Below are positions 40,632 through 62,811 of a stretch of DNA of 64,000 nt, one piece after another (the first letter of the stretch is position 1; the number at the start of each line of letters is the position of its first letter). The notes below the pieces were generated by a model. It was not told the origin of the DNA and made no database searches. It saw nothing but the letters and a program-made list of their open reading frames with translations. This DNA comes from an uncultured Acidobacteriota bacterium (lineage in GTDB: Bacteria > Acidobacteriota > Terriglobia > Terriglobales > Acidobacteriaceae): assembly GCA_963799305.1 (NCBI GenBank), contig CAWCWX010000004.1, positions 43,320-107,319 of the forward strand. Direction: 5' to 3'. The translations under genes were made by a program, and so were the position numbers.

Positions 40632-40647
40632 TGGCAACGCGCGTGCA
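40632..40647 (+). promoter_or_regulatory. Sigma-54-type (-24/-12) promoter candidate TGGCAACGCGCGTGCA
   Basis: The GG and GC elements have the canonical spacing (TGGCA-N7-TGCA against the consensus TGGCACG-N4-TTGCA). The site is 41 nt upstream of ATG 40688. Confidence 0.3.
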
Positions 40648-44953: not shown

Positions 44954-46546
44954 TCAGCGCGGGATGTACCGGTTAAGCTGCGGAATGATTTGGTTCCCCA
45001 GGCTCAGGAGGCGGGCTTGCGCGGCCTCGGGGGATTCCTGGTTGTACATCGGTGTGATGAGGCGAACCAGGGCGCCGTCGCTCCGGTTCATGCGAATGGA
45101 ATCGGTGACCAGGTAATACTTCGCACGGTATTCGCTCGCAACCGCCCGGTTGTGTGCCTGAAACCAGTAGATGACCAGTTCGCGCTCGCCGGCTTTCGAC
45201 GTGATGTAGCGGTTCGCAGGGAACGTGGAGCCGTCGGGACGCGAGAGTTGCACCACCTTGCGCTGGATCGGGACCCACCCCTCTCCCTGCAAACAGTGGT
45301 TTGGTGTGTGAATGGTGTCGCCGGCCTTCTGGCTGGGAAAATAAGCGATCAAAAGGTCGATCCAGGGTTGCGGCTGCGTGGGGTCTTCATAGCTTCGGTG
45401 CAGGAATTCGCCGGATCCCAGGATGTCGAGTGTTTGCTGATCGATAATCAGATCCTCCCCGACCCACGGGCCTAACTGATTGGGCAGGGAACTCAATGCC
45501 TCGCGCGGAGGGAATACTTCGTTGTTGGAGCGCGCCTGCATCAGGAGTGCGGTCCCGCCCATTAGTAAGGCAACGATTGCGAAACGAAGGCCTGCGGCTC
45601 GACGACGTCCAGTGATTGCCGTGTCAATTCTTTCCCGTTGCGGACGAACCACACTCACTTCGTGCCCGCCTTTTCCCCAGACACGAAAGATCAAGCCGTG
45701 CAACAGGAAAAGCATGATGAGCGAAACGACGAAAATGAGCCATCCTTCGAAAAGATGGAAGAAGCCTTCGGCTTTGTCCGGATTCCAGTACTGCACCAGC
45801 AAGCCGGTTCCAACAATGCGAAAGCTGTTTGCGACCACCGCGATAGGGATCGAGGCGATCGCCAGCAGCACCCGGACCCAGTTGCGGTCCTCCATCAGAT
45901 AGCCGTAGATGATGGAGAGCGTCAACAGGGAAAGGAGGGAACGAATCCCACTGCATGCCGCGACGACTTCCAGTTTCATCGCAGCCAGTTCGATTACATT
46001 CCCCTCGCGATGAACCACTACGCCTAACATCGGGAGTAATGTGCTGGCTAACTTGGAGGCCAATATCTGGAGCGGGAAAGTAACTTTCTGAAACACGATC
46101 ACCGGGATGGGGATCATCAAAATCAGGATGGCCCATGGGAATAAGACAGCGCGGAACAAAGCCCAGCCATGGAATAGAACGATCAGTCCCGCCAGCAGGA
46201 TCAAAAGAGAAACTCTGGAAAGGAACAACTCAGCGCCAAATTCCCCAAGCATGAGAGTGGCTAGTCCAACGACCATTAAGAACAGACCAGTCCAGGAGGG
46301 CGCCGGCTCAATGCTTTTCAGCTTATTCCGATTCTTCCAGACCACAAACAGGGCAAAGGCGGGGACGAATATTCCATGCTGGAAGTTCTTGTCGTTCATC
46401 CATTGGGTGAACAAACGGGCGAGAATGCCAGCATAAAGCAAGCTCAGCAGTAGTAGAAGCGCCACAGCCTGCCAGCTCGGCAGGGCCGAGGATACCCCCC
46501 TCTGCGTCCTAACCTCCGGCGGGGCTACTTCTACTGAATTACTCAT
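44954..46546 (-). CDS. Exosortase fused to a C-terminal EpsI-family domain
   Basis: 530-aa ORF. The exosortase motifs are VVAACSGIRSLLSL (Cys), NSFRIVGTG (Arg) and FHLFEGWLIF (His). After an extra TM comes an EpsI-like periplasmic domain (LPNQLGPWVGEDL...HTPNHCLQGEGW...ELVIYWFQ...YYLVTDSIRMNRSDGALVRL). Confidence 0.9.
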   Translation of the reverse strand: MSNSVEVAPPEVRTQRGVSSALPSWQAVALLLLLSLLYAGILARLFTQWMNDKNFQHGIFVPAFALFVVWKNRNKLKSIEPAPSWTGLFLMVVGLATLMLGEFGAELFLSRVSLLILLAGLIVLFHGWALFRAVLFPWAILILMIPIPVIVFQKVTFPLQILASKLASTLLPMLGVVVHREGNVIELAAMKLEVVAACSGIRSLLSLLTLSIIYGYLMEDRNWVRVLLAIASIPIAVVANSFRIVGTGLLVQYWNPDKAEGFFHLFEGWLIFVVSLIMLFLLHGLIFRVWGKGGHEVSVVRPQRERIDTAITGRRRAAGLRFAIVALLMGGTALLMQARSNNEVFPPREALSSLPNQLGPWVGEDLIIDQQTLDILGSGEFLHRSYEDPTQPQPWIDLLIAYFPSQKAGDTIHTPNHCLQGEGWVPIQRKVVQLSRPDGSTFPANRYITSKAGERELVIYWFQAHNRAVASEYRAKYYLVTDSIRMNRSDGALVRLITPMYNQESPEAAQARLLSLGNQIIPQLNRYIPR

Positions 46547-46815
46547 GCGCTGTGAGTTGAGAATATGCGAAACGTCGTTAGCTGCGCAATCTTGGAATCG
46601 CTGATCGCACCCAAGTAGCGGACTTCTTTTCCAGCGAGACTAAGCGGTCGGGTGGGCGGGGCAGGCGCAGGGGAAAAAGAGAGAAAAGTAGTTCCAACTT
46701 GGGCCCCAAATCAGCCGCATCCCTGGTGGAACCTCGAAAGGGGTAATGATTCCAGCAGCTTAGAATTCGCACGCCAAAACCTGACGCGGAAATCTACCGC
46801 GTGCTTTGGGTAAAA

Positions 46816-46833
46816 TGGGAAAAACATTTCCCA
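46816..46833. promoter_or_regulatory. Palindrome TGGGAAA-aaca-TTTCCCA (UAS/operator candidate)
   Basis: 7-bp perfect arms in the ~480-nt divergent intergenic region, about 115-130 nt upstream of the -24/-12-like element at 46948. Confidence 0.25.
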
Positions 46834-46947
46834 TTTGTCCGCAGCGATGGTAGGGTTGAGAACACATGAACCGAGGGTTTCTGATCGCAAACTATTGAAA
46901 AGCAAAGCACTATTCGTTTTCTGGAATGTTAGTGGAACGGTCTTGGA

Positions 46948-46963
46948 TGGCAGCAGGTGTGCA
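46948..46963 (+). promoter_or_regulatory. Sigma-54-type (-24/-12) promoter candidate TGGCAGCAGGTGTGCA
   Basis: The same TGGCA-N7-TGCA architecture as 40632. It sits 63 nt upstream of ATG 47026, the first gene of the plus-strand EPS operon. Confidence 0.3.
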
Positions 46964-47025
46964 CTGAATCGAGATGCGATCTACTCCGAGTGAGCTACCC
47001 CCCTGTCCTCGGAAAAGAACCAGCA

Positions 47026-47949
47026 ATGGACATCTTGGGTTCAAACATGCCAGCCGGTGTTGGGGCGCTGCACAATGGCGCATGCCAATGGCGCGAGAGT
47101 GTCAGTTCCGGGATGCGCACGGTCGAAGCTGTGATCCGTGAACTCTCGCAGAATGACGTTCCCGTGCTGGTTGTGGCCGAATCCGGATCGGGGAAGAAAG
47201 CCGCGTCAGCGCGCATTCACGCCCTATCCAACCGGGCGGCGGAACCGTTTCACGTCTGTCACGGAAACGAAGCGACACAGGATATTCTGGCCAATTGGGA
47301 AGCCGACGGCGGAACGGTTTATTTGCAGGACGTTGGGGATCTGGATGCGTCGGCGCAGGCCGAATTGGTGCGCCAAATCGCTTTTCGTGGTGAAGAATCG
47401 CAGCGCGTGCCCCGGTTCATCTGCGGCACATCGCGCGAATTGGAAGCGGAAGTAAAGGCGGGGAAATTCCGCGAAGATCTTTACTATCGCATCAGCGGCG
47501 TTTGTCTGCGACTGCCCCCCTTGCGGCAGCGGAAAGAGGATATCCCCCTTCTGCTGGACTGGTTCCTCTCCGAAGCGGCGCTCGATTTCTCCCGCGACGT
47601 GCCGACGCTGGGCGCGGAGACGCAGAGTTTCTTTTTCGGTTACCACTGGCCGGGCAACATTCGCGAGTTGAAAGACGCGGCGCGGGCGATTGTGGCCCTG
47701 GGCGACGAAACACTGGCGATGGGAGGCTTGCGGTCTCTGCTGCGGCGCGTGGATCGCAACAATGGAGAAAAAGTCTCGCTCAAAGAGGCGGCCAAGGCGG
47801 CGTCCCGGGAAGCGGAAAAAGAATTGATCCTTCAGGTTCTGACGCGGACGCGCTGGAACCGGCGCCGGGCGGCGCAGGAGTTGCAAATCAGTTACAAGGC
47901 CCTGCTCTACAAATTGAAACAGATTGGGTATCAGGAGTTCGGCACTTAG
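47026..47949 (+). CDS. Enhancer-binding-protein-like AAA+/Fis-HTH transcriptional regulator (no receiver domain, degenerate AAA+ core)
   Basis: ATG 47026 lies within ORF 46957..47949. Walker A-like AESGSGKK; GGTVYLQDVGDL where the Walker B motif would be; then KFREDLYYRI, LPPLRQRKEDIP and WPGNIRELKD; C-terminal HTH RWNRRRAAQELQISYKALLYKLK. Confidence 0.85.
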   Translation: MDILGSNMPAGVGALHNGACQWRESVSSGMRTVEAVIRELSQNDVPVLVVAESGSGKKAASARIHALSNRAAEPFHVCHGNEATQDILANWEADGGTVYLQDVGDLDASAQAELVRQIAFRGEESQRVPRFICGTSRELEAEVKAGKFREDLYYRISGVCLRLPPLRQRKEDIPLLLDWFLSEAALDFSRDVPTLGAETQSFFFGYHWPGNIRELKDAARAIVALGDETLAMGGLRSLLRRVDRNNGEKVSLKEAAKAASREAEKELILQVLTRTRWNRRRAAQELQISYKALLYKLKQIGYQEFGT

Positions 47950-47981: not shown

Positions 47982-48593
47982 ATGAAGCGAACCTGGAATG
48001 CAGCCATGGCGATTCTGCTGTTAGCCGGCGGATTGGCCCTGGCGCAGGATGCCGCGCCCGCGCCGACTGCGGCGGCGGAGGGAGCCTTGGGTGCCGCACT
48101 GGCACAAGGCGGCCCCGATTATGTCATCGGCCCGGAAGATGTATTGCACATCGCGGTATGGAAAGAGGCAGACCTCACCGCTACGCTGCCGGTGCGGCCG
48201 GACGGGAAGATCTCCCTGCCACTGATCAACGACGTACAGGCCGCCGGCCTGACTCCGATGCAGTTGGCTGATTCGCTTACCGAGAAGCTCAAAAAATATG
48301 TCGCCTCCCCGCGCGTCACCGTGGTCGTGACTGCGATCAACAGCAAGCGGATTTACCTGGTGGGAGAAGTGGGGCACGCCGGGCCGATTCCCATGCTGCC
48401 CAATATGACCGTTCTGCAGGCGCTTTCGAGCGCCGGCATGACCCAGTTTGCCAATACAAAAAAGATTTACCTGATGCGTTCCGAGGGTGGCAAGCAGGTG
48501 AAGATGCCCGTGAACTACAAGAAGCTCGTCAAGGGTGAACAGATGGAGCAGAACTATCTTCTGAAGCCAGGAGACACGATTGTTGTCCCGTAA
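47982..48593 (+). CDS. Periplasmic polysaccharide export protein (Wza/EpsA-like, PEP-CTERM-locus type)
   Basis: ATG 47982 (CAGGAG upstream). A signal peptide, then YVIGPEDVLHIAVWKE..L....PVRPDGKISLPLINDVQAAGLTP.QL and RIYLVGEV. Confidence 0.9.
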   Translation: MKRTWNAAMAILLLAGGLALAQDAAPAPTAAAEGALGAALAQGGPDYVIGPEDVLHIAVWKEADLTATLPVRPDGKISLPLINDVQAAGLTPMQLADSLTEKLKKYVASPRVTVVVTAINSKRIYLVGEVGHAGPIPMLPNMTVLQALSSAGMTQFANTKKIYLMRSEGGKQVKMPVNYKKLVKGEQMEQNYLLKPGDTIVVP

Positions 48594-48627
48594 CAGATCG
48601 TCAAAGCGGAGTCGACTTAGGGTGGAA

Positions 48628-50049
48628 ATGATGGCAACAAGACTGACATTCCGAGTGTTACTAGCAGTCTTGGGTCTCAGCCTGCTGGCGGCGGGGCAGA
48701 ACGATCCGAATTCGCAGCGCACCGGGCCAGCCCCTGCTCTCGGACAGTCGGCGCCCATCCTGAATCCCGACAATCCCCCGCTCTCGAGCCTCGATGAACC
48801 CGGTCTGGAGATGCGCAGTGGCGATCGCAGTTTCTTCTCTTATGGGTTGTCTGCCAGCGAGAGCGCCGAAAGCAACGCCAGTAACTCCTTTAGCAAAAAT
48901 GGATACAGCGCCGTTACTCATCTCTTGGGCGCACTTGACTTACAGCGTTTTTATCCCAAGACGGATCTCTTTCTCGAATACGTCGGAGGCGGAGCGATCT
49001 ACGCGAATTCCACGCGCGATTTTAGCCAGCTAGACGCTCTGGGAGTGATGGGGATCACCCGTTGGCGCACCGGACGTTTAACGCTGCGTGACTCATTCAG
49101 TTATCTGCCGGAGGGTTCTTTCAGCATTGGGGCTTTTGGCGGCGTGCCCGGTTTGGGTATCGCGACGGGGTCCGGGGCATCGGGCCTCGCGGGCGGCGGA
49201 TTGCCGGGTAGTCACTTTTTCGGTAATGGAGACTACGGTTCGGTCGGACTCACTCCAAGAATTTCTAACAGTGCGTTTGCAGATGTCGTACAAAGCCTTA
49301 CCCCCCGCTCCGCGGTCACCGTCGCGGTGGGCTTCGCCAACGCCCATTTCTTCGACGACACTGACACCTTTATCAACTCCGATAGAATCTCGATGCAAGC
49401 GGGCTATAGCTATCTTCTGGGCCGCCGCGATCAGCTGGGAGCGGTGTATGGCTTCCAGCAGTTTCGTTTTCCTCAGGATGCTGGTGGTCAAACTGACGCG
49501 CAGATCGGAAATTTTCGCTGGAGCCATACCGTCAGTGGAAGAATGACCTTGATTGGAGGAATCGGCCCGCAACGTATCGTAATCCAAATCCCGTTTTCGC
49601 CCGATATCGTGCGCTGGTCGGCGAACGGAAGGGCCGTTGTCCGCTACCGATTTACAAGAACTTCCGTGTCGGCCACGTACGAGAAATTTACTTCGGCGGG
49701 GTCCGGATTCTTTGCCGGAGCCAACACCCAGGTCGCGCGCCTGGGCGTGACCCGCCCCATAGCGCGCACCTGGGAAGCCTACCTCGATATCGGATACGCG
49801 CACAACGAACGTCTCCAGCCACAGGTCGCTACGGGAGAACCCGGGAAGACTTTCAACCACGGCTTTGCGCGGCTTCTGGTGCGTCATCATCTGGGGCGCG
49901 AGTTGTCGGCGTTCGGTGGTTATCGTTTTAACGACCTGAGTTTTGACAGTACTTTTTGCGACGGAGTTTCCAACTGCAGTCATATTTCGCAGGGGAACGC
50001 TTTTACAGTGGGACTGGAATGGCATCCGCGGCCAACCCGCATCGACTAA
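48628..50049 (+). CDS. Outer-membrane beta-barrel protein of the EPS locus
   Basis: ATG 48628 gives the signal peptide MMATRLTFRVLLAVLGLSLLAAGQ. Alternating beta-strand patterns run throughout. It sits between the export and chain-length genes, as in described PEP-CTERM loci. Confidence 0.6.
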   Translation: MMATRLTFRVLLAVLGLSLLAAGQNDPNSQRTGPAPALGQSAPILNPDNPPLSSLDEPGLEMRSGDRSFFSYGLSASESAESNASNSFSKNGYSAVTHLLGALDLQRFYPKTDLFLEYVGGGAIYANSTRDFSQLDALGVMGITRWRTGRLTLRDSFSYLPEGSFSIGAFGGVPGLGIATGSGASGLAGGGLPGSHFFGNGDYGSVGLTPRISNSAFADVVQSLTPRSAVTVAVGFANAHFFDDTDTFINSDRISMQAGYSYLLGRRDQLGAVYGFQQFRFPQDAGGQTDAQIGNFRWSHTVSGRMTLIGGIGPQRIVIQIPFSPDIVRWSANGRAVVRYRFTRTSVSATYEKFTSAGSGFFAGANTQVARLGVTRPIARTWEAYLDIGYAHNERLQPQVATGEPGKTFNHGFARLLVRHHLGRELSAFGGYRFNDLSFDSTFCDGVSNCSHISQGNAFTVGLEWHPRPTRID

Positions 50050-50089
50050 ACACGGGGCCGCCTGAAGCGGCCAGAATGGTGAACAGCAC

Positions 50090-51673
50090 ATGGAAAATCG
50101 CGAACTGACAATGGACGATTATCTGGCGATGGTAAAGCGTCGTCTGAAGGTCATTCTGATTCCGGCGTTACTGGCTCCGATTGCCGGCTTTCTGGTGTCC
50201 TACGCCTTTCCCCCGAAGTATTCTTCGCAGTCCCTGGTATTGGTGGAAGGGCAGAAAGTTCCTGACGCCTATGTAACGCCTGTCATCACCTCGGATTTTA
50301 CGCAGCGTCTGGCGACCATGCAGCAACAGGTGCTGGCCGGTAATCGTCTGCGCCCGATGATCGAGCGCTTGGGAATCGCCAAGCCCGGTGAGGAAGGTGC
50401 GATCATCCAGGAGATTCGCACGAATATGTCGGTGCAGCCAGTCATCACTGACCTTTCAGCTTCTAGTTCCGCGCCCGCGTCCTCGTCATCCGGCAAAAAG
50501 GGCAAATCCAAGAAGGCGACAGGCACCTCGGTGCCCGGTTTCTACGTGAAGTACATTTCCAGTACACCCCGCCGAGCGCAGCAGATCTGCTCCGAGCTGA
50601 CAGGATTGCTGGTCGAGGAAAATCTTCGCACCCGCGCCGGTGTGGCTCAGGGCACGACCGACTTTCTGGGCCGCCAGGTGGACGACGCCAAGCGCGACCT
50701 GGACGATCAGGACGGCAAGCTGGCCGATTTCAAACGCAAATACATGGGACAGCTGCCGGGCGATTCCGAAAATAACCTGCGCATCTTGATGACCGCAAAC
50801 TCGCAGCTCGATGCCAACACCCAGACTCTGAATCGAGCCCAGCAGGACAAAGCGTATACCGAAAGCCTGCTGGCCCAGCAATTGGCGGCATGGAAGAGCC
50901 AGGGGTCCAGCAACAGTCCGCAGACCATGGAGCAGCAGCTCAACACCCTGGAAGCACAGTTGATGCAACTCCAGGCGCGGTATACAGATGATCATCCGGA
51001 CGTTATCAAGACCAAAGCGGATATCGCCGAAGTAAAGAAAAGACTCGCCGAGGCCAACCAGGCCGCCAGCTCCGCCACCGCCACCACCCAAAAAGCGAGC
51101 GCGTCCGAACCGCCAGAGATCCGTCAACTCCGTCTCCAGGTACATCAGTACGAAAACGTAATTACGCAGGCCACCGCCGATCAGAAGCGGCTGCAAAGCC
51201 AGATCCAGCTCTATGAGTCGCGTACCGCGATGAGTCCGGCCATCGAAGAACAATACAAGGCTTTGACCCGTGACTACGACAACGCACAGAGTCACTACCG
51301 CGACTTACTCACCAAGAAAAATTCCTCCGAGCTGGCGTCCGACATGGAAAGTCAGCAGGAGGGCGAACTGATGCACGTTCTCGATCCAGCTGGCTTGCCT
51401 TCCGATCCGACCTTTCCCAATCGCCTGTATTTCGCGGGCGGTGGTCTGGGTGCGGGTCTTGCGCTGGGAATCGGCGTCGCCATCTGGCTGGAACTCCGCG
51501 ACCGCTCGATCCGCACTGAAAAAGACGCGGCCGCGGCCATGGATCTTCCTCTGCTGGTGTCCGTCCCCTGGGTATCCGATGAAGATCCGGTCTCGCTCAC
51601 CGGCAATGGCCGGCGACCTTTCTGGGGACCTCGAAACGGCAAGGAACACGACCGGCAGGAGATCGGGGTCTGA
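50090..51673 (+). CDS. Polysaccharide chain-length determinant (Wzz/PCP family, PEP-CTERM-locus type)
   Basis: 527-aa ORF with an N-terminal Wzz motif (LIPALLAPIAGFLVSYAFPPKYSSQSLVLVE), a long coiled-coil middle and a C-terminal TM (YFAGGGLGAGLALGIGVAIWLEL). Confidence 0.85.
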   Translation: MENRELTMDDYLAMVKRRLKVILIPALLAPIAGFLVSYAFPPKYSSQSLVLVEGQKVPDAYVTPVITSDFTQRLATMQQQVLAGNRLRPMIERLGIAKPGEEGAIIQEIRTNMSVQPVITDLSASSSAPASSSSGKKGKSKKATGTSVPGFYVKYISSTPRRAQQICSELTGLLVEENLRTRAGVAQGTTDFLGRQVDDAKRDLDDQDGKLADFKRKYMGQLPGDSENNLRILMTANSQLDANTQTLNRAQQDKAYTESLLAQQLAAWKSQGSSNSPQTMEQQLNTLEAQLMQLQARYTDDHPDVIKTKADIAEVKKRLAEANQAASSATATTQKASASEPPEIRQLRLQVHQYENVITQATADQKRLQSQIQLYESRTAMSPAIEEQYKALTRDYDNAQSHYRDLLTKKNSSELASDMESQQEGELMHVLDPAGLPSDPTFPNRLYFAGGGLGAGLALGIGVAIWLELRDRSIRTEKDAAAAMDLPLLVSVPWVSDEDPVSLTGNGRRPFWGPRNGKEHDRQEIGV

Positions 51674-51682
51674 GGCAAAAAT

Positions 51683-52642
51683 ATGTATAAAGAGTTTTTT
51701 GGACTTCGGGCCAACCCGTTCAACGTAAATCCGGACCCGCGTTATCTGTATCTGACGCGGCACACGGAAGAGGCCCTGGCATGCCTGACGTATGGCATCC
51801 AGAGCCGCAAGGGTTTTGTACTGCTGACGGGCGAGGTCGGTACGGGTAAGACGACGCTGATCAACAAACTGCTGGAATGGTTGCGTCTCCAGCAGGTGGC
51901 AACCGCGTTCATCTTCAACTCGCGTTTAGACGTGCCGCAGTTTCTCGACTTCATGATGGCGGATTTTGCTATTCCATGCGACGCGAAGTCGAAGAGCCAG
52001 GTGCTGCAACGACTCTACAACTGGCTGCTTGATCGCTACCGGGCGGGCGAGACGGCGGTGCTGATCATTGACGAGTCGCAGAACCTCTCGGACGAAGTGC
52101 TGGAAGAGATCCGGATGCTGACCAATCTGGAGACTTTTACCGAGAAGCTGCTGCAAATCGTGCTGGTCGGACAACCGGAACTGGAACAACGCCTGAAGCA
52201 GCCACAGTTGCGGCAGTTGCGGCAACGCTTGACGCTGCGGGCGAAAACGCATCCGTTCAACCTTGAGGAGACCAAGTCCTACATTACGCAGCGACTGAGA
52301 ATCGCCGGCTCGAATGGTGATGTGATTTTCGAGCCCGACGCCGTGGCGGCGCTCTTTCGCTACTCCAGCGGAGTACCGCGCGTGATCAACCTGTTATGCG
52401 AGCACTGTTTGGTCAGCGCGTTTGTGGATCAGAAGAAAACGGTTTCGGCCGAGATTGTGGATGCGGTCGCCAAGGACTTCGATTTAGGCGATGGGTTAGT
52501 CGGCGCAGTCATGACGACCCCTGAGGTTCCACCCGCGTCTCCCGAAAAGTTTGATCTGTTAGAAGCTCTTCGCACGCTATCTACCCTGGCGGATAAGATC
52601 CGTCAATCCGAACAAGATCTCCCCAAAGAGAGGAAACTATGA
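51683..52642 (+). CDS. ExeA-like AAA ATPase of the EPS locus
   Basis: MYKEFFGLRANPFNVNPDPRYLY, Walker A GEVGTGKTT and Walker B VLIIDESQ. Confidence 0.85.
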   Translation: MYKEFFGLRANPFNVNPDPRYLYLTRHTEEALACLTYGIQSRKGFVLLTGEVGTGKTTLINKLLEWLRLQQVATAFIFNSRLDVPQFLDFMMADFAIPCDAKSKSQVLQRLYNWLLDRYRAGETAVLIIDESQNLSDEVLEEIRMLTNLETFTEKLLQIVLVGQPELEQRLKQPQLRQLRQRLTLRAKTHPFNLEETKSYITQRLRIAGSNGDVIFEPDAVAALFRYSSGVPRVINLLCEHCLVSAFVDQKKTVSAEIVDAVAKDFDLGDGLVGAVMTTPEVPPASPEKFDLLEALRTLSTLADKIRQSEQDLPKERKL

Positions 52643-53538
52643 GCCGCATCCATGACGCTTTAAAACGCGCCGAACAGGAACGAGCAACTTCCATGGGGGG
52701 ACATGTTGAGCCTGCCCTGGGCCAGCCGGAGCTGCAACCGGTAAGCATGCCCGAGCACGTCCAGACGCCAACCGCAGTGATGCCTTCCATGCCGGGGGCG
52801 GCCTTTAGCTATGAGGCCTTGCTGGCACAGTGTCCGCTTTCGAACTGGGCGCCGGACTCCCGCACGATGCTGTTCTTCCAGGACGACGAGAACAGGAAAG
52901 GCGCGGAGGAATTCCGCACCCTGCGTTCGCGCCTGTATCAGATTCGCGAGAAGCTGCCCTTGAAGCGGCTCATGGTGACGAGTGCGCTGCCCAAGGAGGG
53001 GAAGTCATTTGTGGCTGCCAATCTGGCCCAGGTGATTGTTCAGCAGCAAGGGCGCCGCGTCCTGCTGATCGACGCCGATCTGCGCAGCCCTGGCATGCAT
53101 CGTCATCTGGGCGCAAGTCAAACGCCGGGATTGTCGGACTACCTGCTCGGAGAAAGTGACGAGATGTCCGTCATGCAGCGCGGCCCGATGGAAAATCTGT
53201 TCTTCGTGCCTGCCGGCCGGCATGCTCCAGGCGCGCCCGAACTGCTCGCTAACGGTCGCTTGAAGCTTTTCCTCCAGCGCGTCGAACCGCTTTTCGACTG
53301 GATCATCATGGACACCCCGCCAGTCATTCCGGTCGCGGACTCCACGCTGCTGGCGAATTTTTGCGAAGGAGTGCTGATGGTAGTGCGATCCAATGCCACG
53401 CCCTCCGACCTGGCTCGCAAGGCTCGCGAGGAATTTCAGGACAAACTGCTGCTCGGAGTTGTACTCAACGGAATCCCCGCCGATCAGCTTCCGCAGTCCA
53501 GGTATTACTACGGCGAGGCAGTAGCAAACCCCGCATAA
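52639..53538 (+). CDS. BY-kinase-like tyrosine autokinase / chain-length ATPase
   Basis: ATGA overlap with the previous gene. The product has MSRIHDALKRAEQE, the P-loop LPKEGKS, Walker A' LLIDADLRSP, Walker B WIIMDTPP and a C-terminal Tyr cluster RYYYGE. Confidence 0.85.
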   Translation: MSRIHDALKRAEQERATSMGGHVEPALGQPELQPVSMPEHVQTPTAVMPSMPGAAFSYEALLAQCPLSNWAPDSRTMLFFQDDENRKGAEEFRTLRSRLYQIREKLPLKRLMVTSALPKEGKSFVAANLAQVIVQQQGRRVLLIDADLRSPGMHRHLGASQTPGLSDYLLGESDEMSVMQRGPMENLFFVPAGRHAPGAPELLANGRLKLFLQRVEPLFDWIIMDTPPVIPVADSTLLANFCEGVLMVVRSNATPSDLARKAREEFQDKLLLGVVLNGIPADQLPQSRYYYGEAVANPA

Positions 53539-53556
53539 AACGAACCGAGGGCATGG

Positions 53557-54927
53557 GTGATCAGGCTTTTCAATGTCTATTACCCGATTCGCACACTGAT
53601 CCTGCTAGCCGGAGAGGCGCTGATCGTATGGACCTCATTCCTGCTTGGGGCAGTGCTCGAACTCAGGGACGACAGTTACCTGGTTCTGAACTACGAAGGG
53701 GGGTACGTCAAAATCTTCGTAGTCACAGGCCTGGTGCTGCTCTGTTCCTATTGGTTTGACCTCTACGATACCGCGCGCCTCACGACCAAGGGCGAACTTT
53801 ACTTCCGCTTGCTGCTGGTCCCGGGGCTGCTCGCTTTCCTGCTGGCTGCGGTGGGCTACATCCATCCCAGTTATCTCATTGGGAATGGAGCCTCCGAGGT
53901 GGGATTGCTGATTCTCACCGTGGCCATGATTGGCTGGCGGCTCGGTTTCGGATGGCTGGTGCAGTTGCCCATTCTTGTAGAACGGATCTATGTCCTAGGA
54001 ACGGGCGAGAGAGCGCAGCGCCTGGTGCAGGGCCTGCGGCAGAATCCGGAACTGGGAGTTGAAGTGGCGAGCTGGACTGGCAAACTGGAGGGCGCCGTCA
54101 CCCGTAATTCTGTCGCCGCTCACCTTATGGAAATCGTCCACCAGCAGAAAGTGCATCGTGTGATTGTTGCCATGCCGGACCGGCGCGGCACCATCCCCAT
54201 GCGGGAGTTGCTCGATCTACGGATGCAAGGTGTGCAGGTAGAAGAAGCAACCTCTTGGCTTGAAAAGATGTCGGGCAAGATCGAAGTCGAAAATCTATAC
54301 CCGAGCTGGCTGATTTTTGCCGACGGTTTCCGCCGCAGTTCGACGTTCATCGTGGTTCGGCGCACGCTGTCGATTGGGATCTCGCTGGCCGGATTGATTC
54401 TGAGCGCGCCGTTGTGGCCGGTGCTGATGCTGGTCATCAAGCTTGATTCGAAGGGGCCGGTTTTTTACACGCAGCGCCGGGTGGGAAAGGGCGGAGGCGT
54501 CTTCAGCGTCATCAAGTTCCGCACCATGCGGCAGGACGCGGAGGCGGCAGGCCCACAGTGGGCGGGTCTGAACGATCCGCGGATCACCAAGGTCGGCAGG
54601 TTTCTGCGATCCTCCCGGCTGGACGAGATTCCGCAGTTGTGGTGCGTGCTCAAGGGGGACATGGCATTCGTGGGCCCGCGACCGGAGCGCCCGGAGTTTG
54701 TGGAGTCCCTCACCAAGGAGATCCCGTTTTACGGCGTGCGGCACATGGTGCGTCCCGGGCTGACGGGATGGGCGCAGATCAAATACAAGTACGGAAGTAC
54801 GGTCGCTGACGCGCGCGAGAAACTGCAGTATGACTTGTTCTATATCAAGAATGCTTCGATTGGACTGGATCTGTTGATCATGTTCCAGACCATCAAGACG
54901 GTGTTGCTGCGCCGGGGCGCGCAATGA
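53557..54927 (+). CDS. Polyprenyl-phosphate sugar-phosphate transferase (priming glycosyltransferase, PEP-CTERM-locus type)
   Basis: GTG start. N-terminus MIRLFNVYYPIRTLILLAGE and the bacterial sugar transferase core KFRTM...DEIPQLWCVLKGDMAFVGPRPERPEF. Confidence 0.9.
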   Translation: MIRLFNVYYPIRTLILLAGEALIVWTSFLLGAVLELRDDSYLVLNYEGGYVKIFVVTGLVLLCSYWFDLYDTARLTTKGELYFRLLLVPGLLAFLLAAVGYIHPSYLIGNGASEVGLLILTVAMIGWRLGFGWLVQLPILVERIYVLGTGERAQRLVQGLRQNPELGVEVASWTGKLEGAVTRNSVAAHLMEIVHQQKVHRVIVAMPDRRGTIPMRELLDLRMQGVQVEEATSWLEKMSGKIEVENLYPSWLIFADGFRRSSTFIVVRRTLSIGISLAGLILSAPLWPVLMLVIKLDSKGPVFYTQRRVGKGGGVFSVIKFRTMRQDAEAAGPQWAGLNDPRITKVGRFLRSSRLDEIPQLWCVLKGDMAFVGPRPERPEFVESLTKEIPFYGVRHMVRPGLTGWAQIKYKYGSTVADAREKLQYDLFYIKNASIGLDLLIMFQTIKTVLLRRGAQ

Positions 54928-56045
54928 AATGGGTGTTCTGGATCGCGGCTGGAGTCATTACCTATGCTTACGTGGGATATGCGGTCTGGTTGTGGATTCG
55001 CAGCGCCTGGTCGCCGCGTCCGGTGCGCCGTGGAGTTGTGGAGCCCACCGTGTCGGCGGTGATGGTGGTTCGCAATGAAGAAGCGGTGATCGCCCGCAAG
55101 CTGGAAAATCTGCTGGCTCTCGAGTATCCGGCGGCCAAGCTGAATGTGGTGGTGGTTTCGGATGGATCGAGTGACGGCACGGAGTCAATACTTCACGCCT
55201 TCAGCCAGCATGGGCGCATCCGGACTTTGTTGAAACCGGAGTCGCAGGGCAAAGCGTTGGGACTGAACGACGCACTCAAGCTTGCGAGCGGAGAAATTTT
55301 GTTATTCACCGACGCTCGCCAGGCCATCGAACCGGGGGCGTTGCGTTTGCTGGTCGAGAATTTCGCCGATCCCGTGGTCGGCTGCGCTAGCGGCGAATTG
55401 ATGCTGGGCGATCCGGCCAACGGGGAAACGGGAAAGGGAATGGGTTTGTACTGGCGCATTGAAAAGAAGATTCGTGAGATGGAGTCGGCTTCCGGATCCG
55501 TTGCCGGCGCCACCGGGGCAATTTACTGCGCGCGCCGCGATTTGCTTGAGCCCCTGCCTGCCGGAACCATTCTCGACGATGTATTGCTTCCCATGCAGAT
55601 TGCGCGAAAGGGCTCGCGGGTGGTCTTCGATTCCCGTGCGCGCGCATGGGACTCTCCGGACCTGGGGGGTAATCGCGAGTTTTCGCGGAAGGTTCGAACC
55701 CTCACGGGGAACTATCAGATCCTCCAACTGGCGCCCTGGCTGTTGAGTTCCAGGAATCCGATTCGATTCGAATACGTCAGCCACAAGCTTTCACGCCTCG
55801 CGGTGCCATTCGCGTTGCTGGCGCTGCTGGTCGCCTCCCTCTTCTTGCCACAGCCGTGGTATCGCGCGGCGCTGGCGGCGCAGGTTGCGTTTTATGCTTT
55901 GAGCGGGTTGGCGATGGCCGGAGTGAAGATCGGTCCGCTGTCGCGAGTTGCAGATGCGGCGCGCACCTTCGTGGTCTTGAATTCTGCTGCGCTGGTGGCT
56001 TTCGTCAACTTTGTGACCGGCAGAAAGGCGGTCTGGGTCCGCTGA
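54924..56045 (+). CDS. Membrane-associated family 2 glycosyltransferase
   Basis: ATGA overlap. VSAVMVVRNEE...VVVVSDGSSDGT...LFTDARQ, with C-terminal TM helices. Confidence 0.85.
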   Translation: MKWVFWIAAGVITYAYVGYAVWLWIRSAWSPRPVRRGVVEPTVSAVMVVRNEEAVIARKLENLLALEYPAAKLNVVVVSDGSSDGTESILHAFSQHGRIRTLLKPESQGKALGLNDALKLASGEILLFTDARQAIEPGALRLLVENFADPVVGCASGELMLGDPANGETGKGMGLYWRIEKKIREMESASGSVAGATGAIYCARRDLLEPLPAGTILDDVLLPMQIARKGSRVVFDSRARAWDSPDLGGNREFSRKVRTLTGNYQILQLAPWLLSSRNPIRFEYVSHKLSRLAVPFALLALLVASLFLPQPWYRAALAAQVAFYALSGLAMAGVKIGPLSRVADAARTFVVLNSAALVAFVNFVTGRKAVWVR

Positions 56046-56050
56046 CTGCC

Positions 56051-57289
56051 ATGCGAATTCTCTGGGTTAAAGCCGATAAGCTCCTACCCGTGGAGAACGG
56101 GGGCAACATCCGCACGTACCATATCTTGCGGCATCTATCGGCACGGCATGAGTTGATTTTCTACTCGTACTACGGGGGTGCGGTGGATAAGGCCTACGAA
56201 CGTGAGTTGCAGCACCGTCTGCCCGGGTCGGTGGCGGTGTGCACTGGCAAGCGTGAGCTGTCAGGAATTTCACGGGGTCTGGACTATCTGGTGCACTTGA
56301 ATTCGCAGCCGCCTTATGCGGTGAGCCGTTTCGCCAGCCTCAAGGTGCAGAATCAGTTGCGATCCTGGTTTGGTGAACAGCACTTTGATGTGGCGGTGTG
56401 CGACTTTCTGGATGCGGCGGTGAATTTTCCGGGACGCTTGAACATTCCCTCTGTGCTGTTTCAGCACAATGTGGAAAGCGAAATCTGGCGGCGGCACGAG
56501 GCCACGGCCTCTTATTCTGTGAAGAAGGCAATGTACGGAATGGAATTCCGCAAGATGGAGCGTTACGAACGGATGGTCGTGCGCAAGTTTCATCATGTCG
56601 TCGCCGTTTCCGAAAGCGATCGCGCCCTCATGACAAAGTGGGTGGACGCCGATCGCGTCACGGTGGTTCCGACGGGAGTGGACCTGGCTGAATATCGGCC
56701 AGCTCCCGAGTCTGCTGAGCCCGGCCCGGTCGTGACATTTGTCGGCGCGATGGATTGGGAGCCGAATGTCGACGGCGTGGAATATTTTGCCAGCGAAGTT
56801 TGGCCAGCCATCAAGGCAGACGTGCCCGAGGCGCGGTTGCGGATCGTAGGGCGGAATCCCGACGGGCGTGTAAAAAAATGGGAGTCGGAATCCATCGAGG
56901 TTACGGGACGCGTCCCTTCGGTGGTGGAATATTTGCGTGAGTCGGCGGTGGTAATTGTGCCCTTGCGCATCGGAGGCGGAACGCGTCTCAAGATCTACGA
57001 AGCGATGGCCACGGCGAAGGCGGTTGTCTCGACCACCGTCGGAGCGGAAGGACTCGACGTTCATCATGGCCGCGACATCATGCTGGCCGACGACCCCGGC
57101 TCCTTCGCCCAGGCTGTGATCATGCTGCTCCGCGACCGCGAACTGCGGCGTCGCTACGAACGGGCTGCCGTGGAAACCGCGGCACGATGTGATTGGGCTG
57201 CAATTGGGGAGCGTTTCGGAGAAGTCTTGCAGGCAGTGGTGCAACGCAAGAAAGCGAAGACAGGCGCAGTTCCCGCGCGTTCGGCATAG
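56051..57289 (+). CDS. Family 4 (GT-B) glycosyltransferase
   Basis: ATG 56051 lies within ORF 55856..57289. MRILWVKADKLLPVENGGNIRTYH and the EX7E region GGTRLKIYEAMATAKAVVST. Confidence 0.85.
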   Translation: MRILWVKADKLLPVENGGNIRTYHILRHLSARHELIFYSYYGGAVDKAYERELQHRLPGSVAVCTGKRELSGISRGLDYLVHLNSQPPYAVSRFASLKVQNQLRSWFGEQHFDVAVCDFLDAAVNFPGRLNIPSVLFQHNVESEIWRRHEATASYSVKKAMYGMEFRKMERYERMVVRKFHHVVAVSESDRALMTKWVDADRVTVVPTGVDLAEYRPAPESAEPGPVVTFVGAMDWEPNVDGVEYFASEVWPAIKADVPEARLRIVGRNPDGRVKKWESESIEVTGRVPSVVEYLRESAVVIVPLRIGGGTRLKIYEAMATAKAVVSTTVGAEGLDVHHGRDIMLADDPGSFAQAVIMLLRDRELRRRYERAAVETAARCDWAAIGERFGEVLQAVVQRKKAKTGAVPARSA

Positions 57290-57360
57290 AGCAGTACGGT
57301 TTCAAGAAAAGAGGGTTTGTGGCAATCGGTGACAACGGAACGGCAGTCGCGACGGATATC

Positions 57361-58674
57361 ATGGGCCGGAGAAAGGTAGCCCCGAGCGGAGACGCCACGA
57401 AGGCCGCATTTTTCTGGCTCAGTGGTTTCTACATCGTGTACTGCGCCCGCCCGGAGGACTGGATTCCCGGACTGCAATACGCTCCCTTGGCGAAGATCAC
57501 CGCCATTCTGGCGATGTGGGCCATGTTCAACAACCAGGGACGGCTGAAGCGTACCTTCAGGGACGTGCCAAAAGAAGGAAAAATACTGCTCGCGATGATC
57601 TGTCTTCTCTTCGTGAGTGCCGGGTTGTCACCGATCTGGAAGGGCGGCTCACTGGACAAGACGATGGACTTCTCCAAGGTCTTTATCGCCTGGGTGCTGA
57701 CATTCCTGCTGATCACAACCTTCGAACGCTTGCGCAAGATTATCTTCATCCAGGCGGCTTCAGTGGTGGTGGTGGCCTCCGTTTCCATTATCAAGGGCCA
57801 GGACACGCCACGCCTCCAGGGCGTGCTGGGGGGCATCTATTCCAACCCGAACGACCTTGCTTTCGCGCTCGTGTTGTCGCTACCCTTCGCGCTCGCGTTT
57901 ATGGTTACGGCCCGGAGTGCTTTCGTGAAGGCGCTTTGGCTGGGCGGAATTCTCATCATGTCCACCGCGCTGTTCATGACCGCATCACGCGCGGGGTTCC
58001 TGAATTTGCTCATCACTGGCACGGTGACGCTTTATTACTTTGGTATCAAGGGAAAACGCTACTACCTGATTGCCGCCACCCTGGTGGTGGTCACGCTCCT
58101 GATGGCAACGGTGGGTGGCAAGCTCTACGCCCGCTTTGAGGCGATTTCCGGCGACGCGGGTGGCGAATCGTCCGCCGAGGCCTCCTACGAGGACCGCAAA
58201 TACCTCATGGAGCGCGCGCTGGTGGGGATCGAACACTATCCTATTCTGGGTTTGGGGCCGCGCAATTTCAATACCTACTCCCTGATCTGGCACGAAGTCC
58301 ACATGACTTACCTCCAGATCTGCGTCGAGGGCGGCATTCCGGCGCTGGTTCTGTACCTGATGTTCTTCGCCGGCGGCTTCCGGAATCTGAGAATTCTGCA
58401 AAAGACCAAGGGTCTCGACGAACACACTGTACTGTTTATTGGAGCGCTGCACTCTTCCCTTGTGGGCTTTGCGGTAGGAGCGCTGTTTGCTCCTGAGGCG
58501 TATCAGTACTTCCCCTATTTCGCCGTCGCGTTCACATCCACGCTGTTGCAGACCGTAAGAGAACGAGAGAGAGAACAAGGACCGGATCCGGCGGCCCCTG
58601 CGCCGAAGAAACCGCGTCACTTCCTGGAGGCATATGCCGACGATCGAACAACAGCTCCGGCCCCTGTCCGATGA
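57361..58674 (+). CDS. O-antigen ligase/polymerase-like (Wzy_C) membrane protein
   Basis: ATG 57361 lies within ORF 57193..58674. About 10-12 TM segments and the Wzy_C-like string MTASRAGFLNLLITG. Confidence 0.8.
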   Translation: MGRRKVAPSGDATKAAFFWLSGFYIVYCARPEDWIPGLQYAPLAKITAILAMWAMFNNQGRLKRTFRDVPKEGKILLAMICLLFVSAGLSPIWKGGSLDKTMDFSKVFIAWVLTFLLITTFERLRKIIFIQAASVVVVASVSIIKGQDTPRLQGVLGGIYSNPNDLAFALVLSLPFALAFMVTARSAFVKALWLGGILIMSTALFMTASRAGFLNLLITGTVTLYYFGIKGKRYYLIAATLVVVTLLMATVGGKLYARFEAISGDAGGESSAEASYEDRKYLMERALVGIEHYPILGLGPRNFNTYSLIWHEVHMTYLQICVEGGIPALVLYLMFFAGGFRNLRILQKTKGLDEHTVLFIGALHSSLVGFAVGALFAPEAYQYFPYFAVAFTSTLLQTVREREREQGPDPAAPAPKKPRHFLEAYADDRTTAPAPVR

Positions 58675-59605
58675 TTTGCAGTCGATTCTTCGTTGCCTGA
58701 GTTGCGGAGGACGGCTGGACAGCGATGGCTCCGGGGGCTTTGTGTGTCCTGGGTGTAAGCGTGCTTACGCGAACGTTCTGGGCATCGCGCGATTTGTCGA
58801 CGCTCAGCACTACGCGGCCAGCTTTGGATTTCAATGGCATCGCTACCAGAAGACGCAGCTGGGGGAGAATGACGTCCGTGGTTCGGAGCATCAGTTCGAG
58901 ATGAAGACTGGGCTGCGTCGCGAAGAATTAAGAAACAAGCTGGTTCTCGATGTGGGTTGCGGCATGGGCCGCTTTGCCGAAGTGGCGACACGCTGGGGAG
59001 CGAGGGTCGTGGGAATCGATTTGAGCGCCGCGGCAGAAGTGGCGGCGAAGAACCTTGCTGATCGGGATTTTGTGGCGATGCAGGCGGACGTCTTCGCACT
59101 GCCCTTTGTTCCCGAAAGCTTTGACATCATTTATAGCGTGGGCGTTCTGCATCACACGCCGGATTGCGAAGCGGCCGTAAAGGCATTGGGAAAATATCTC
59201 AAGCCGGGGGGAGTGCTCGCGGTGTGGTTGTACAGCGGCTATAACAAGTGGTACCGCTTCAGTGATTTCTGGCGGCGCTTTACCCATAAAATGAAGCCCG
59301 AAACCCTGCACGGAATACTGAAGGTAGCCGTACCGAGCTTTTATCATCTAGGCCGCACCCTGCGGAAAGTGCCGGTCCTTGGGGCTCCGGTCGCGGGCGT
59401 GATCCATCACGTATTTCCCGTGAATCGTCACCCCGACGCGGAGACGCGAATGCTCGATACTTTCGATTGGTATTCCCCGAAATATCAGTCGAAACACACC
59501 TACGAACAGGTATTTCGCTGGTACGAGTCGATGGGAATGGAAGACATGCGGATCGGCGAAGTATCCATAGCGGTTCGGGGACGGAAGCCGGAGCGAACGG
59601 CATAG
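58634..59605 (+). CDS. Class I SAM-dependent methyltransferase with an N-terminal Trm112-like zinc ribbon
   Basis: LRCLSCGGRLD....FVCPGCKRAY, then the SAM motif I VLDVGCGMGRF. It overlaps the previous gene by 41 nt. Confidence 0.85.
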   Translation: MPTIEQQLRPLSDDLQSILRCLSCGGRLDSDGSGGFVCPGCKRAYANVLGIARFVDAQHYAASFGFQWHRYQKTQLGENDVRGSEHQFEMKTGLRREELRNKLVLDVGCGMGRFAEVATRWGARVVGIDLSAAAEVAAKNLADRDFVAMQADVFALPFVPESFDIIYSVGVLHHTPDCEAAVKALGKYLKPGGVLAVWLYSGYNKWYRFSDFWRRFTHKMKPETLHGILKVAVPSFYHLGRTLRKVPVLGAPVAGVIHHVFPVNRHPDAETRMLDTFDWYSPKYQSKHTYEQVFRWYESMGMEDMRIGEVSIAVRGRKPERTA

Positions 59606-59628
59606 CGGGAAGTTGCCGTTTCCACAAC

Positions 59629-60804
59629 ATGAGCCTGCAAAAGAAAATTGCGTACGCAAAGAAAGTTCTGCCGGGCGCGACTTGGAGAGCGCTGGGAGCG
59701 GCTCCGCACGGTCCTGTGCATCTCATGATCGCTGTCGCTGATCATTTCGAGCCCGCCATTGACCCGGATAGTGGACGAACACGGGTTCCGCGTCCGGAGC
59801 AGGAACGAAGGCTGGAATGGTGGACCCGAGAATATCCGGGAGTCGTGGATCGCTGGCGCGATCGTGATGGACGTCCGTTGACTCACACTTATTTCTATCC
59901 GGCCGAGCAATACGATGAAGGTCTGGTTGAGATGCTCGCCGATCACTGCCATGCCGGATGGGGAGAGGTGGAGATTCATCTTCACCATGGATGGGACCAT
60001 CCCGACACCGCTGAAAACACGCGTCGTGTGCTGACGGAGTTTCGCGACCACCTGGCGTTTCGCCATCGTTGCCTGTCAATGGAACCGGGTTCCAACCTTC
60101 CCCGCTACGGTTTTGTACACGGAGATTTTGCGCTGGCCAATTCGTCGGGCGGGCACGCCTGCGGCGTGGACGCAGAAATGCAGATTCTTGCCGAGACCGG
60201 CTGTTACGCGGACTTTACGCTGCCGACGGGACCGCTTCATCCCGCGCAAACGGCAAAGATCAACTCGGTTTACGAGTGCGCGTTGCCGCTGGATCAGGCC
60301 GCGCCACATCGCAAGGGGCTTAACCTCACCGCCGGTAAGACGCCGCGAATCTTTCCTTTGATGGTGCAGGGGCCTGTGCTCACCGATCTAAGACGCAGCG
60401 CTAGTTCGATGAAACTGATTCTGGAAACGAGTGCGATCACGCGGCCGAATCCGGCGAGTCTGCACCGGTTGGCACTCTGGAAGCAGGCTCGCGTGCACGT
60501 CCTAGGACGTCCCGAGTGGCTCTTCATCAAACTGCATTGCCATAGTATGGAACCAACGCAGAAGGATGCCGTGATCGGCGACTCCTTCCGGAAGTTTCTA
60601 AAGGAACTGGTTGAGGGCGCGGCGCAACGCGACGAAACCCTGCATTTTGTCACTGCGAGGGAATTGACCAATATTCTTCTCGCGGCCTGTGACGGGCGGG
60701 AAGGCGATCCGGGCCAGTATCGCGATTATCGCTTCAAACGCCTGGTGGACATGCCGGATGCTCTGCAGCAACAGGCTTCGTCTCCGGTGGCTGTGAAAGG
60801 CTAA
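59629..60804 (+). CDS. Hypothetical protein (His-rich, possible metal-dependent carbohydrate esterase/hydrolase-like)
   Basis: ATG 59629 lies within ORF 59467..60804. Strings are HLMIAVADHFEP, EVEIHLHHGWDHPD, FVHGDFALAN and IKLHCHSME. I could not make a confident family assignment. Confidence 0.6.
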   Translation: MSLQKKIAYAKKVLPGATWRALGAAPHGPVHLMIAVADHFEPAIDPDSGRTRVPRPEQERRLEWWTREYPGVVDRWRDRDGRPLTHTYFYPAEQYDEGLVEMLADHCHAGWGEVEIHLHHGWDHPDTAENTRRVLTEFRDHLAFRHRCLSMEPGSNLPRYGFVHGDFALANSSGGHACGVDAEMQILAETGCYADFTLPTGPLHPAQTAKINSVYECALPLDQAAPHRKGLNLTAGKTPRIFPLMVQGPVLTDLRRSASSMKLILETSAITRPNPASLHRLALWKQARVHVLGRPEWLFIKLHCHSMEPTQKDAVIGDSFRKFLKELVEGAAQRDETLHFVTARELTNILLAACDGREGDPGQYRDYRFKRLVDMPDALQQQASSPVAVKG

Positions 60805-60812
60805 GATTCGAT

Positions 60813-62789: not shown

Positions 62790-62811
62790 CTTGTCACCAG
62801 CCAGTCCGGCA

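Follow-up and report, generated by a model that had tools for sequence, protein, structure and literature searches.

Enhancer-binding proteins (EBPs) that have lost the GAFTGA motif and act with sigma-70 form an established class, to which TyrR, DhaR, HupR, VpsR and YplP (Francke 2011; PMC3162934) and also NtrX, HsfA and PhhR (PMC6158489, which again lists VpsR) have been assigned; the NtrC of Caulobacter is likewise GAFTGA-defective and sigma-70-acting (bioRxiv 10.1101/2023.06.06.543975). In VpsR of Vibrio cholerae GAFTGA is absent, the Walker B pair reads N/D, ATPase activity is lacking and the protein activates a sigma-70 promoter of exopolysaccharide (EPS) genes (PMC6158489). The motif is defective or deleted in TyrR/PhhR, HupR, DhaR, Brucella NtrX and the NtrC proteins of Rhodobacter and Caulobacter, and atypical EBPs of the TyrR, HupR and NtrX type act as ordinary DNA-binding activators or repressors, some of which need ATP binding and not hydrolysis. 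Here, we describe REG, a gene located in a 64 000-nucleotide stretch (the window) of an uncultured Acidobacteriota bacterium (Terriglobales, Acidobacteriaceae; GCA_963799305.1, contig CAWCWX010000004.1, positions 43,320–107,319), which encodes a AAA+ protein with a Fis-type helix–turn–helix (HTH) domain at the head of an EPS operon linked to the exosortase gene xrtD. REG shares the loss of GAFTGA with the proteins above; unlike them it has no sensory or receiver domain, and its Walker B motif is degraded whereas most of theirs are intact. For none of these proteins is a free-standing AAA+/HTH form at the head of an exosortase EPS operon described. Very probably, REG is a sigma-54-blind, hydrolysis-independent and operon-specific DNA-binding protein, and it is on balance probable that the whole explanation is that of a modulator which binds DNA but neither hydrolyses ATP nor contacts sigma-54, which has its nearest analogue in VpsR and which works inside a sigma-54 circuit.

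As a relative VpsR is only a distant one, and its structure (7v2b) is a mid-ranking match in searches with REG. Both proteins are EBP homologs without GAFTGA in which the Walker B D/E pair is replaced (N/D in VpsR, Q/D in REG), both are tied to polysaccharide genes, and the VpsR site abuts or overlaps the −35 element of a sigma-70 promoter, as is predicted for REG. VpsR carries a receiver (REC) domain at its N-terminus and binds cyclic di-GMP (c-di-GMP), and its targets carry no sigma-54 promoter, whereas REG is devoid of any N-terminal domain, is short of 21 + 7 residues in the two EBP insertions and is encoded behind a conserved sigma-54 promoter. The catalytic residues of REG, furthermore, decay across its family, and active paralogs share its DNA-binding head.

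REG matches the Pfam profile Sigma54_activ_2 (PF14532) with 89.8 bits (cut-off 25) in a single stretch (residues 31–166 on profile positions 8–138 of 138), whereas the match to the canonical Sigma54_activat profile (PF00158; 74.9 bits, cut-off 20.2) is split into two stretches. AAA_lid_14 (59.8 bits) and HTH_8 (43.4 bits) are matched as well, which bears out the AAA+ core and Fis-type HTH recognized in the first-pass annotation of the window. In phmmer alignments with NtrC1 and ZraR, residues 87–93 of REG correspond to residues 83–110 of NtrC1, a deletion of about 21 residues in which the whole ELFGYEKGAFTGA hairpin is gone, and a second gap of seven residues falls in the pre-sensor-I (L2) insertion. 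Both gaps recur in a BLASTP alignment with the PspF-like EBP of the same genome. At residue level, the Walker B segment LFLDEI of solved activators aligns with VYLQDV and their sensor I Asn with Ser. The deleted loop, the substituted Walker B and the Walker A reading AESGSGKK, all originally called from an alignment made by eye, are therefore upheld. Gly54, Gly56, Lys57, Arg149, Arg155 and the sensor II residue Arg213 are present in REG itself.

Only some 25–30 residues, variable among orthologs, precede the AAA+ core, and Pfam finds no domain before residue 31, in agreement with the earlier observation that a sensory domain is missing. An alternative start at GTG 46957, which might have hidden an N-terminal domain, was rejected: the 23-codon extension adds no Pfam domain and is not conserved, the upstream DNA aligning with indels that are not multiples of three. 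Most of the 120 close homologs are 307–309 residues long and start with MD or ME at the ATG. The AlphaFold model (mean predicted local distance difference test score of 66) displays the five-strand AAA+ order with both insertions missing, and a fold search with this low-confidence model matches ZraR, NtrC1, NtrX, LuxO, PspF and VpsR; it lends weak support, and to the fold class only. Against PrsR (TIGR02915) the protein scores 132.4 bits (cut-off 502.6) over model positions 232–438 only, with no receiver domain, and none of the NCBIfam equivalog thresholds is reached by REG.

Two sets of orthologs were assembled: sampling 200 genomes of the order gave 30 syntenic ones, and the GTDB collection gave those of 80 further species; the loop is missing in every member of both. 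A word-indexed search returned thousands of matches, of which the best 120 (77–90% identity, 304–338 residues) stem from Terriglobales/Acidobacteriaceae metagenome-assembled genomes (MAGs) of soil and peat; an exhaustive search added about 100 more 50%-identity clusters (290–340 residues) that match in one stretch, so that the deletion is common to them. In all, the loop is lost in about 200 relatives, about 110 of which are syntenic orthologs from genomes and MAGs of Terriglobales, and this recurrence indicates that the features of REG are fixed in the lineage and are no assembly error. In a phylum-wide sample of 301 genomes, REG matches at E ≤ 1e-45 are confined to the family of the window itself; a sister family has relatives of 38–41% identity in the same position.

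The pattern of conservation within these relatives separates what is kept from what has been released. The L1 region measures 21–30 residues against 42 in the canonical EBPs of the same genome, and the L2 region, of unconserved sequence, measures 20–23 residues against 27. Gly54, Gly56 and Lys57 are essentially invariant; the first Walker A Gly is replaced by Ala throughout the genus clade, and the residue following the Walker A Lys, E or D in canonical EBPs, is variable. The Walker B Asp position is Gln in 88 of 90 genus-clade orthologs and E, S, D, Q, V, H, R or A in other genera, the Arg-finger position (Arg155) is Gly in 59 of the 90, and sensors I and II vary outside the genus. The S-Y-K...Y-K positions of the recognition helix are conserved to at least 93%, and to at least 97% at four of the five. 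Within the genus the non-synonymous divergence (dN) of REG is 0.11–0.25 with saturated synonymous divergence (dS), giving a dN/dS of about 0.07–0.15 where computable, and in the same loci the adjacent genes for XrtD, the export protein and the outer-membrane (OM) barrel are all less well conserved than REG. These rates indicate that REG is under strong purifying selection and, with its lead over neighbouring genes, argue that it is functional. The selected function would be DNA binding and probably nucleotide binding, not ATP hydrolysis or contact with sigma-54. The description 'ATPase-dead' follows from the Gln at the Walker B Asp position together with the drift among orthologs. The sequences thus point to descent from a sigma-54 activator that lost L1 with GAFTGA, the pre-sensor-I insertion and the constraint on ATP hydrolysis, but in which the P-loop, the fold of the AAA+ and lid domains and a Fis-type HTH of high specificity were retained. 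The initial view of a degenerate, probably ATPase-dead, DNA-binding EBP derivative is well supported by the loop loss, the unconstrained catalytic residues and the near-invariant HTH.

Phylogenetic footprinting was applied to the regulatory elements upstream of REG, in intergenic DNA that otherwise aligns poorly. The palindrome TGGG[A/C/T]AA-N4-TTTCCCA occurs in 71 of 79 loci, always 125–135 bp upstream of the −24 element, and variants of it occur in other genera. The 5.25-Mb genome contains a single intergenic copy, and 0.03 copies are expected by chance in the window. When the whole genome was searched for a palindrome regulon, under strict and relaxed settings, the sole further intergenic site accompanied by a sigma-54 element was a looser variant upstream of the short (PspF-like) EBP gene. 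At 16–17 nucleotides (nt) after the TTCCCA of the right arm, 93 of 106 loci have TAnnnT, preceded by TG in 83 of the 93; conservation is confined to the T, A, T and TG positions, with variable letters between them, and such a TGnTAnnnT pattern is the signature of an extended −10 promoter. Transcription is predicted to start at about 46863, which places the centre of the palindrome at about −38. Further downstream, TGGCA-N7-TGC with variable inner positions lies 70–150 nt before the ATG in 78 of 79 species and in 21 of 23 loci in other genomes; its count within the window is not above chance, and the weight of the sigma-54 element therefore lies in its conservation. The only other exact match in the window is at 40632–40646. 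The genome encodes rpoN and four HU/IHF genes, and an IHF-like box lies between the palindrome and the sigma-54 element (Table 1). The EPS operon thus appears to have tandem sigma-70-type and sigma-54 promoters, both predicted. The first-pass annotation had pointed to GAFTGA-less relatives that act with sigma-70; the extended −10 element with the palindrome over its −35 fits such a role for REG. The gene itself sits behind a conserved sigma-54 promoter, which places REG in a sigma-54 circuit.

An Rfam search of the intergenic region gave no match, and RNAalifold predicted zero pairs in the REG leader. A hairpin named by hand in this leader (46980–47018, CCGAG...CTCGG, 6 bp) includes the GGA of the likely ribosome-binding region; orthologs read CCAAG...CTTGG, a compensatory change, with 83% of cells paired, and the covariation score is reached by 4 of 500 shuffles, which is modest support.

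REG is separated from the export gene by 32 nt, and a terminator scan of this gap predicted none. The export gene lies directly 3′ of REG in 30 of 30 and 79 of 80 loci of the two sets, xrtD lies upstream and divergent in 26 of 30 and 69 of 79, and this layout persists down to 39% REG identity. By gene order, REG is the first gene of an XrtD-linked EPS operon in nearly all loci. Control of both the EPS and the exosortase genes had been proposed; its EPS half is backed by this synteny, but no operator common to the palindrome region and the xrtD promoter was found. On the xrtD strand, a box (GAGAATATGCGAAA, 46559–46572) located 13–27 nt before the xrtD start codon is kept in most orthologs of the genus and contains TATTCT, a possible −10 element that would leave the xrtD mRNA with almost no leader. 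The box is unconnected with the palindrome, 250 bp away. The features are summarized in Table 1.

Table 1. Features of the REG locus and of related loci in the same genome (window positions unless prefixed by C or L).
Feature	Position	Strand	Details
XrtD-type exosortase–EpsI fusion	44954..46546	−	divergent from REG; TIGR04152, 442 bits (cut-off 400)
Perfect inverted repeat	46813..46836		10-bp arms, 4-bp spacer; core TGGGAAA-N4-TTTCCCA at 46816–46833
Sigma-70-type promoter (predicted)	46828..46856	+	−35-like TTCCCA (right arm of palindrome), 17-nt spacer, extended −10 TGgTAGGGT (46848–46856)
IHF-like box	46888..46900	+	CAAACTATTGAAA (YAA-N4-TTGAAA); between palindrome and sigma-54 element; 60/79 loci
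Sigma-54 −24/−12 element (predicted)	46948..46963	+	TGGCAG-N5-GTGCA; 63 nt before ATG; predicted start ~46974
REG	47026..47949	+	307-residue stand-alone AAA+/Fis-HTH protein; EBP derivative without GAFTGA loop
Walker A	47176..47199	+	AESGSGKK, residues 51–58; G54, G56, K57 kept in ~200 relatives
L1 deletion junction	47284..47304	+	residues 87–93; ~21 residues including GAFTGA missing versus NtrC1 and EBPs of same genome
Degenerate Walker B	47314..47331	+	TVYLQD, residues 97–102; Asp→Gln, Glu→Asp
Shortened pre-sensor-I (L2) insertion	47380..47412	+	residues 119–129; region of 20 residues versus 27 in canonical EBPs
FREDLYYR	47467..47490	+	residues 148–155; R149 conserved; R155 at Arg-finger position
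Fis-type HTH (HTH_8)	47806..47922	+	recognition helix ISYKALLYKLKQ; nearly invariant in ~200 relatives
EPS operon	47982..63954	+	export protein, OM barrel, chain-length determinant, XrtA-type ATPase, BY-kinase, priming transferase, glycosyltransferases, O-antigen-ligase-like gene
Second degenerate EBP paralog	C16:11872-12991 = L044:7871-8950	−	358 residues; same EBP subfamily
Regulatory cluster	C6:44735-49021 = L045:6688-11025		PilZ → PspF-like EBP on one strand; 309-residue histidine kinase → NtrC-type EBP on the other

The genome encodes about 25 EBP homologs, none of which reaches the PrsR cut-off, and only four of these carry the helix WNR[KR]xAAxxLxISY[KR]ALLYK: REG; a canonical NtrC-type response regulator with an adjacent 309-residue kinase (C6:46671-49021); a canonical PspF-like (short) EBP with a PilZ gene just upstream (C6:44735-45760); and a second degenerate EBP on C16. 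In a tree, these four stand apart from the other eleven EBPs (support 100/99), the REG family is monophyletic (100/100) and the response regulator has the C16 protein as its sister (100/98), from which it follows that it degenerated independently of REG. REG is about 35% identical to the canonical paralogs. The first-pass annotation noted that the window holds no kinase/NtrC-type pair; REG does not replace such a pair, as the genome has one on another contig, together with the PspF-like EBP. This pair falls outside the PrsR/PrsK families, the regulator scoring 347 bits against the PrsR cut-off of 502.6.

Association of these genes with REG is visible in related genomes. XrtD and REG are directly adjoined in genus g8 by a PEP-CTERM gene, a PrsT-like TPR protein and orthologs of the kinase, the response regulator and the short EBP; the response-regulator ortholog lies 2–10 kb from REG or a REG-like gene in at least 12 genomes, and every genome with a close REG ortholog also has it. 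In the sister family (the second of the order) the kinase/regulator pair is divergent from a REG-like gene with the Walker B sequence VYLHH, which heads the export operon behind a sigma-54 element. From these arrangements we infer that the sigma-54 promoter is fired by the canonical paralogs, NtrC-type and/or PspF-like; having the same DNA-reading head, REG would work at the site that they use.

The C16 paralog keeps the length of L1, with GAFTGA replaced by a variable H-A-N-G-N-G-like stretch; its Walker B reads LLED, its Arg finger is His and its helix is ISYRALLYK. It is flanked by NusG-like and Poly_export genes, another polysaccharide locus, and has orthologs (67–82% identity) in about 12 of 18 genus genomes. 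The short EBP gene is preceded by a related half-palindrome; a sigma-54-like TGGTGC-N5-ATGCA lies at −61 and a GTGTGAAAAGTTTTTCCC repeat at −214, and these two recur in the g8 ortholog.

Three further described systems resemble parts of this arrangement. PspF and HrpR/HrpS share with REG an AAA+ core and HTH without an N-terminal regulatory domain, and the PspF-like EBP of the genome is among the closest canonical relatives of REG, with the same recognition helix; in these activators of sigma-54 promoters GAFTGA, the Arg fingers and the DE pair of Walker B are all retained, whereas none of them is under constraint in REG. PrsK/PrsR/PrsT combine an exosortase/EPS locus with sigma-54 control and an upstream activator site (Haft 2006, PMC1569441; Aquincola, PMC9850573), and in related genera of the present lineage a kinase, an NtrC-type regulator and a TPR protein are also associated with the locus; here, the kinase is short (309 residues) and the motif found upstream is another palindrome, spaced differently. 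The paralogous EBPs VnfA1 and VnfA3 of Azotobacter vinelandii share target sites (PMC9542535), comparable to the several EBP paralogs with related DNA-binding domains that would meet on the same promoters here, but all VnfA paralogs are active sigma-54 activators, whereas two of the four paralogs in this genome are degenerate. Elsewhere in the genome (C2), a PEP-CTERM-type gene starting at 1017296 (−) has the sigma-54 element TGGCAGTGTAGGTGCA at −102, a YAA-N4-TTGAAA box about 40 nt upstream of this element and, further up, a different inverted repeat (CTTCGGAT-N12-ATCCGAAG), a layout that suggests several enhancer types within one sigma-54/IHF-like scheme.

The working model that we propose has two tandem promoters transcribing the operon. 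The upstream one would be an extended −10, sigma-70-type promoter with its −35 inside the conserved 18-bp palindrome; the second, about 110 bp downstream, would be an IHF-assisted sigma-54 promoter for which the palindrome lies at enhancer distance (about −150), fired by the NtrC-type response regulator and/or the PspF-like EBP. A dimer or oligomer of REG, possibly gated by nucleotide, would bind the same palindrome and so feed back on its own operon, most likely as a brake that occludes the −35 region and competes with the active paralogs for the enhancer, and less likely as a class II co-activator like VpsR. REG most likely tunes the operon rather than switching it on. The parts of this model are not of equal strength: binding of REG to the palindrome is a tentative assignment, somewhat short of an even chance; the brake is held more tentatively still; and a VpsR-like activator is unlikely. 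A bolder version, itself unlikely, casts REG as a dead EBP paralog, transcribed from the sigma-54 promoter, that serves as a built-in enhancer decoy or gate at a shared upstream activating sequence. The enhancer would then double as a sigma-70 operator, and REG would set a ceiling or a ligand-dependent threshold on enhancer-dependent EPS transcription. The independently degenerated C16 paralog at another EPS locus suggests a recurrent solution.

Several observations weigh against this model. REG itself retains both Arg residues and sensor II, and Asp102 could serve as a base. The structural model is of low confidence, as stated above. The palindrome centre lies 3–4 bp off the classical class II position of −41.5, a protein of the CRP/FNR type could also recognize such a repeat, and a simple sigma-70 consensus scan calls no promoter upstream of REG, a result attributable to the weak −35. 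Genomes without REG bear on the same point. Most of them also lack XrtD, but in two g8 loci, L126 (genome G026) and L128 (genome G165), XrtD and the export gene are direct divergent neighbours; both the IHF-like box and the sigma-54 element are kept, and the position of REG is taken by an untranslated stretch of 240–390 nt in which no REG remnant is detectable. In G026 the export gene is still preceded by a site resembling the palindrome, together with the extended −10, the IHF-like box and the sigma-54 element, so that another factor may own the palindrome; in G165 the palindrome is degraded, and these two informative genomes disagree.

The alternative that survives best, although we consider it unlikely, is that REG is a positive regulator like VpsR, with ATP or c-di-GMP bound at the P-loop, which activates the sigma-70-type promoter with its weak −35 in class II fashion, so that the EPS operon would stimulate its own expression without recourse to the sigma-54 input. 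REG shows the same pattern of defects as VpsR, an EPS regulator that needs no ATP hydrolysis, its palindrome overlaps a poor −35 and its P-loop Lys is invariant. A PilZ gene adjoins the related short EBP, and FleQ, as cited in PMC6158489 (reference 58 there), binds c-di-GMP at Walker A. However, extended −10 promoters usually make an activator unnecessary, the palindrome is centred near −38 and not at −41.5, the REC domain of VpsR has no counterpart in REG, and REG is not indispensable, since the REG-less relatives keep the promoter set before the export gene.

Less probable by a clear step is that REG works as a poison or adaptor subunit, entering mixed oligomers with the canonical paralogs through its conserved AAA+ interfaces, altering the activity of their hexamers and needing no DNA site of its own. 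GAFTGA-defective subunits are dominant negative in EBP hexamers. The AAA+ and lid core of REG and its REDLYYRISGVCLRLPPLR block are highly conserved, paralogous EBPs interact in Azotobacter, and the same subfamily contains the second, independently degenerated paralog. But conservation in REG peaks in the recognition helix, an argument that selection acts on sequence-specific DNA binding; most orthologs of the genus have lost the Arg finger; and the identity with the canonical paralogs is low (about 35%).

A conserved sigma-54 promoter and an enhancer-like palindrome directly upstream could also be taken to mean that REG remains an activator of sigma-54 RNA polymerase, with some non-canonical contact in place of GAFTGA. 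This is very improbable: the whole L1 hairpin is missing rather than substituted and L2 is shortened, the hydrolysis residues are unconstrained, every characterized activator requires both the loop and ATP hydrolysis (PMC3162934), and canonical paralogs with the same HTH are available for the task. That REG is a functionless, decaying relic that has lost several catalytic motifs, or an artefact of annotation or assembly, is contradicted by the recurrence of the same open frame, unchanged in length, in more than 110 genomes and a dN/dS of about 0.1 (dS saturated) in the best-conserved gene of the locus, and can practically be dismissed.

Literature searches found nothing specific on the REG family, on XrtD regulation or on acidobacterial EPS regulators, no paper combining GAFTGA with exosortase and none combining Acidobacteria with exosortase and sigma-54. 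Few bacteria in soil are as abundant as the Acidobacteria, and the control of their EPS/exosortase genes is essentially uncharted. The database labels 'sigma-54-dependent/interacting transcriptional regulator' and 'AtoC response regulator' mis-state the capability of the REG family. If the decoy or gate were true, it would be a pseudo-enzyme control layer not described for sigma-54 systems. The locus is a compact natural test system for the evolution of sigma-54 activators into ordinary transcription factors, and it also bears on the competition of dead and live paralogs at a shared enhancer and on why sigma-70 and sigma-54 promoters stack before EPS operons; the species of genus g8 with and without REG offer ready-made comparisons.

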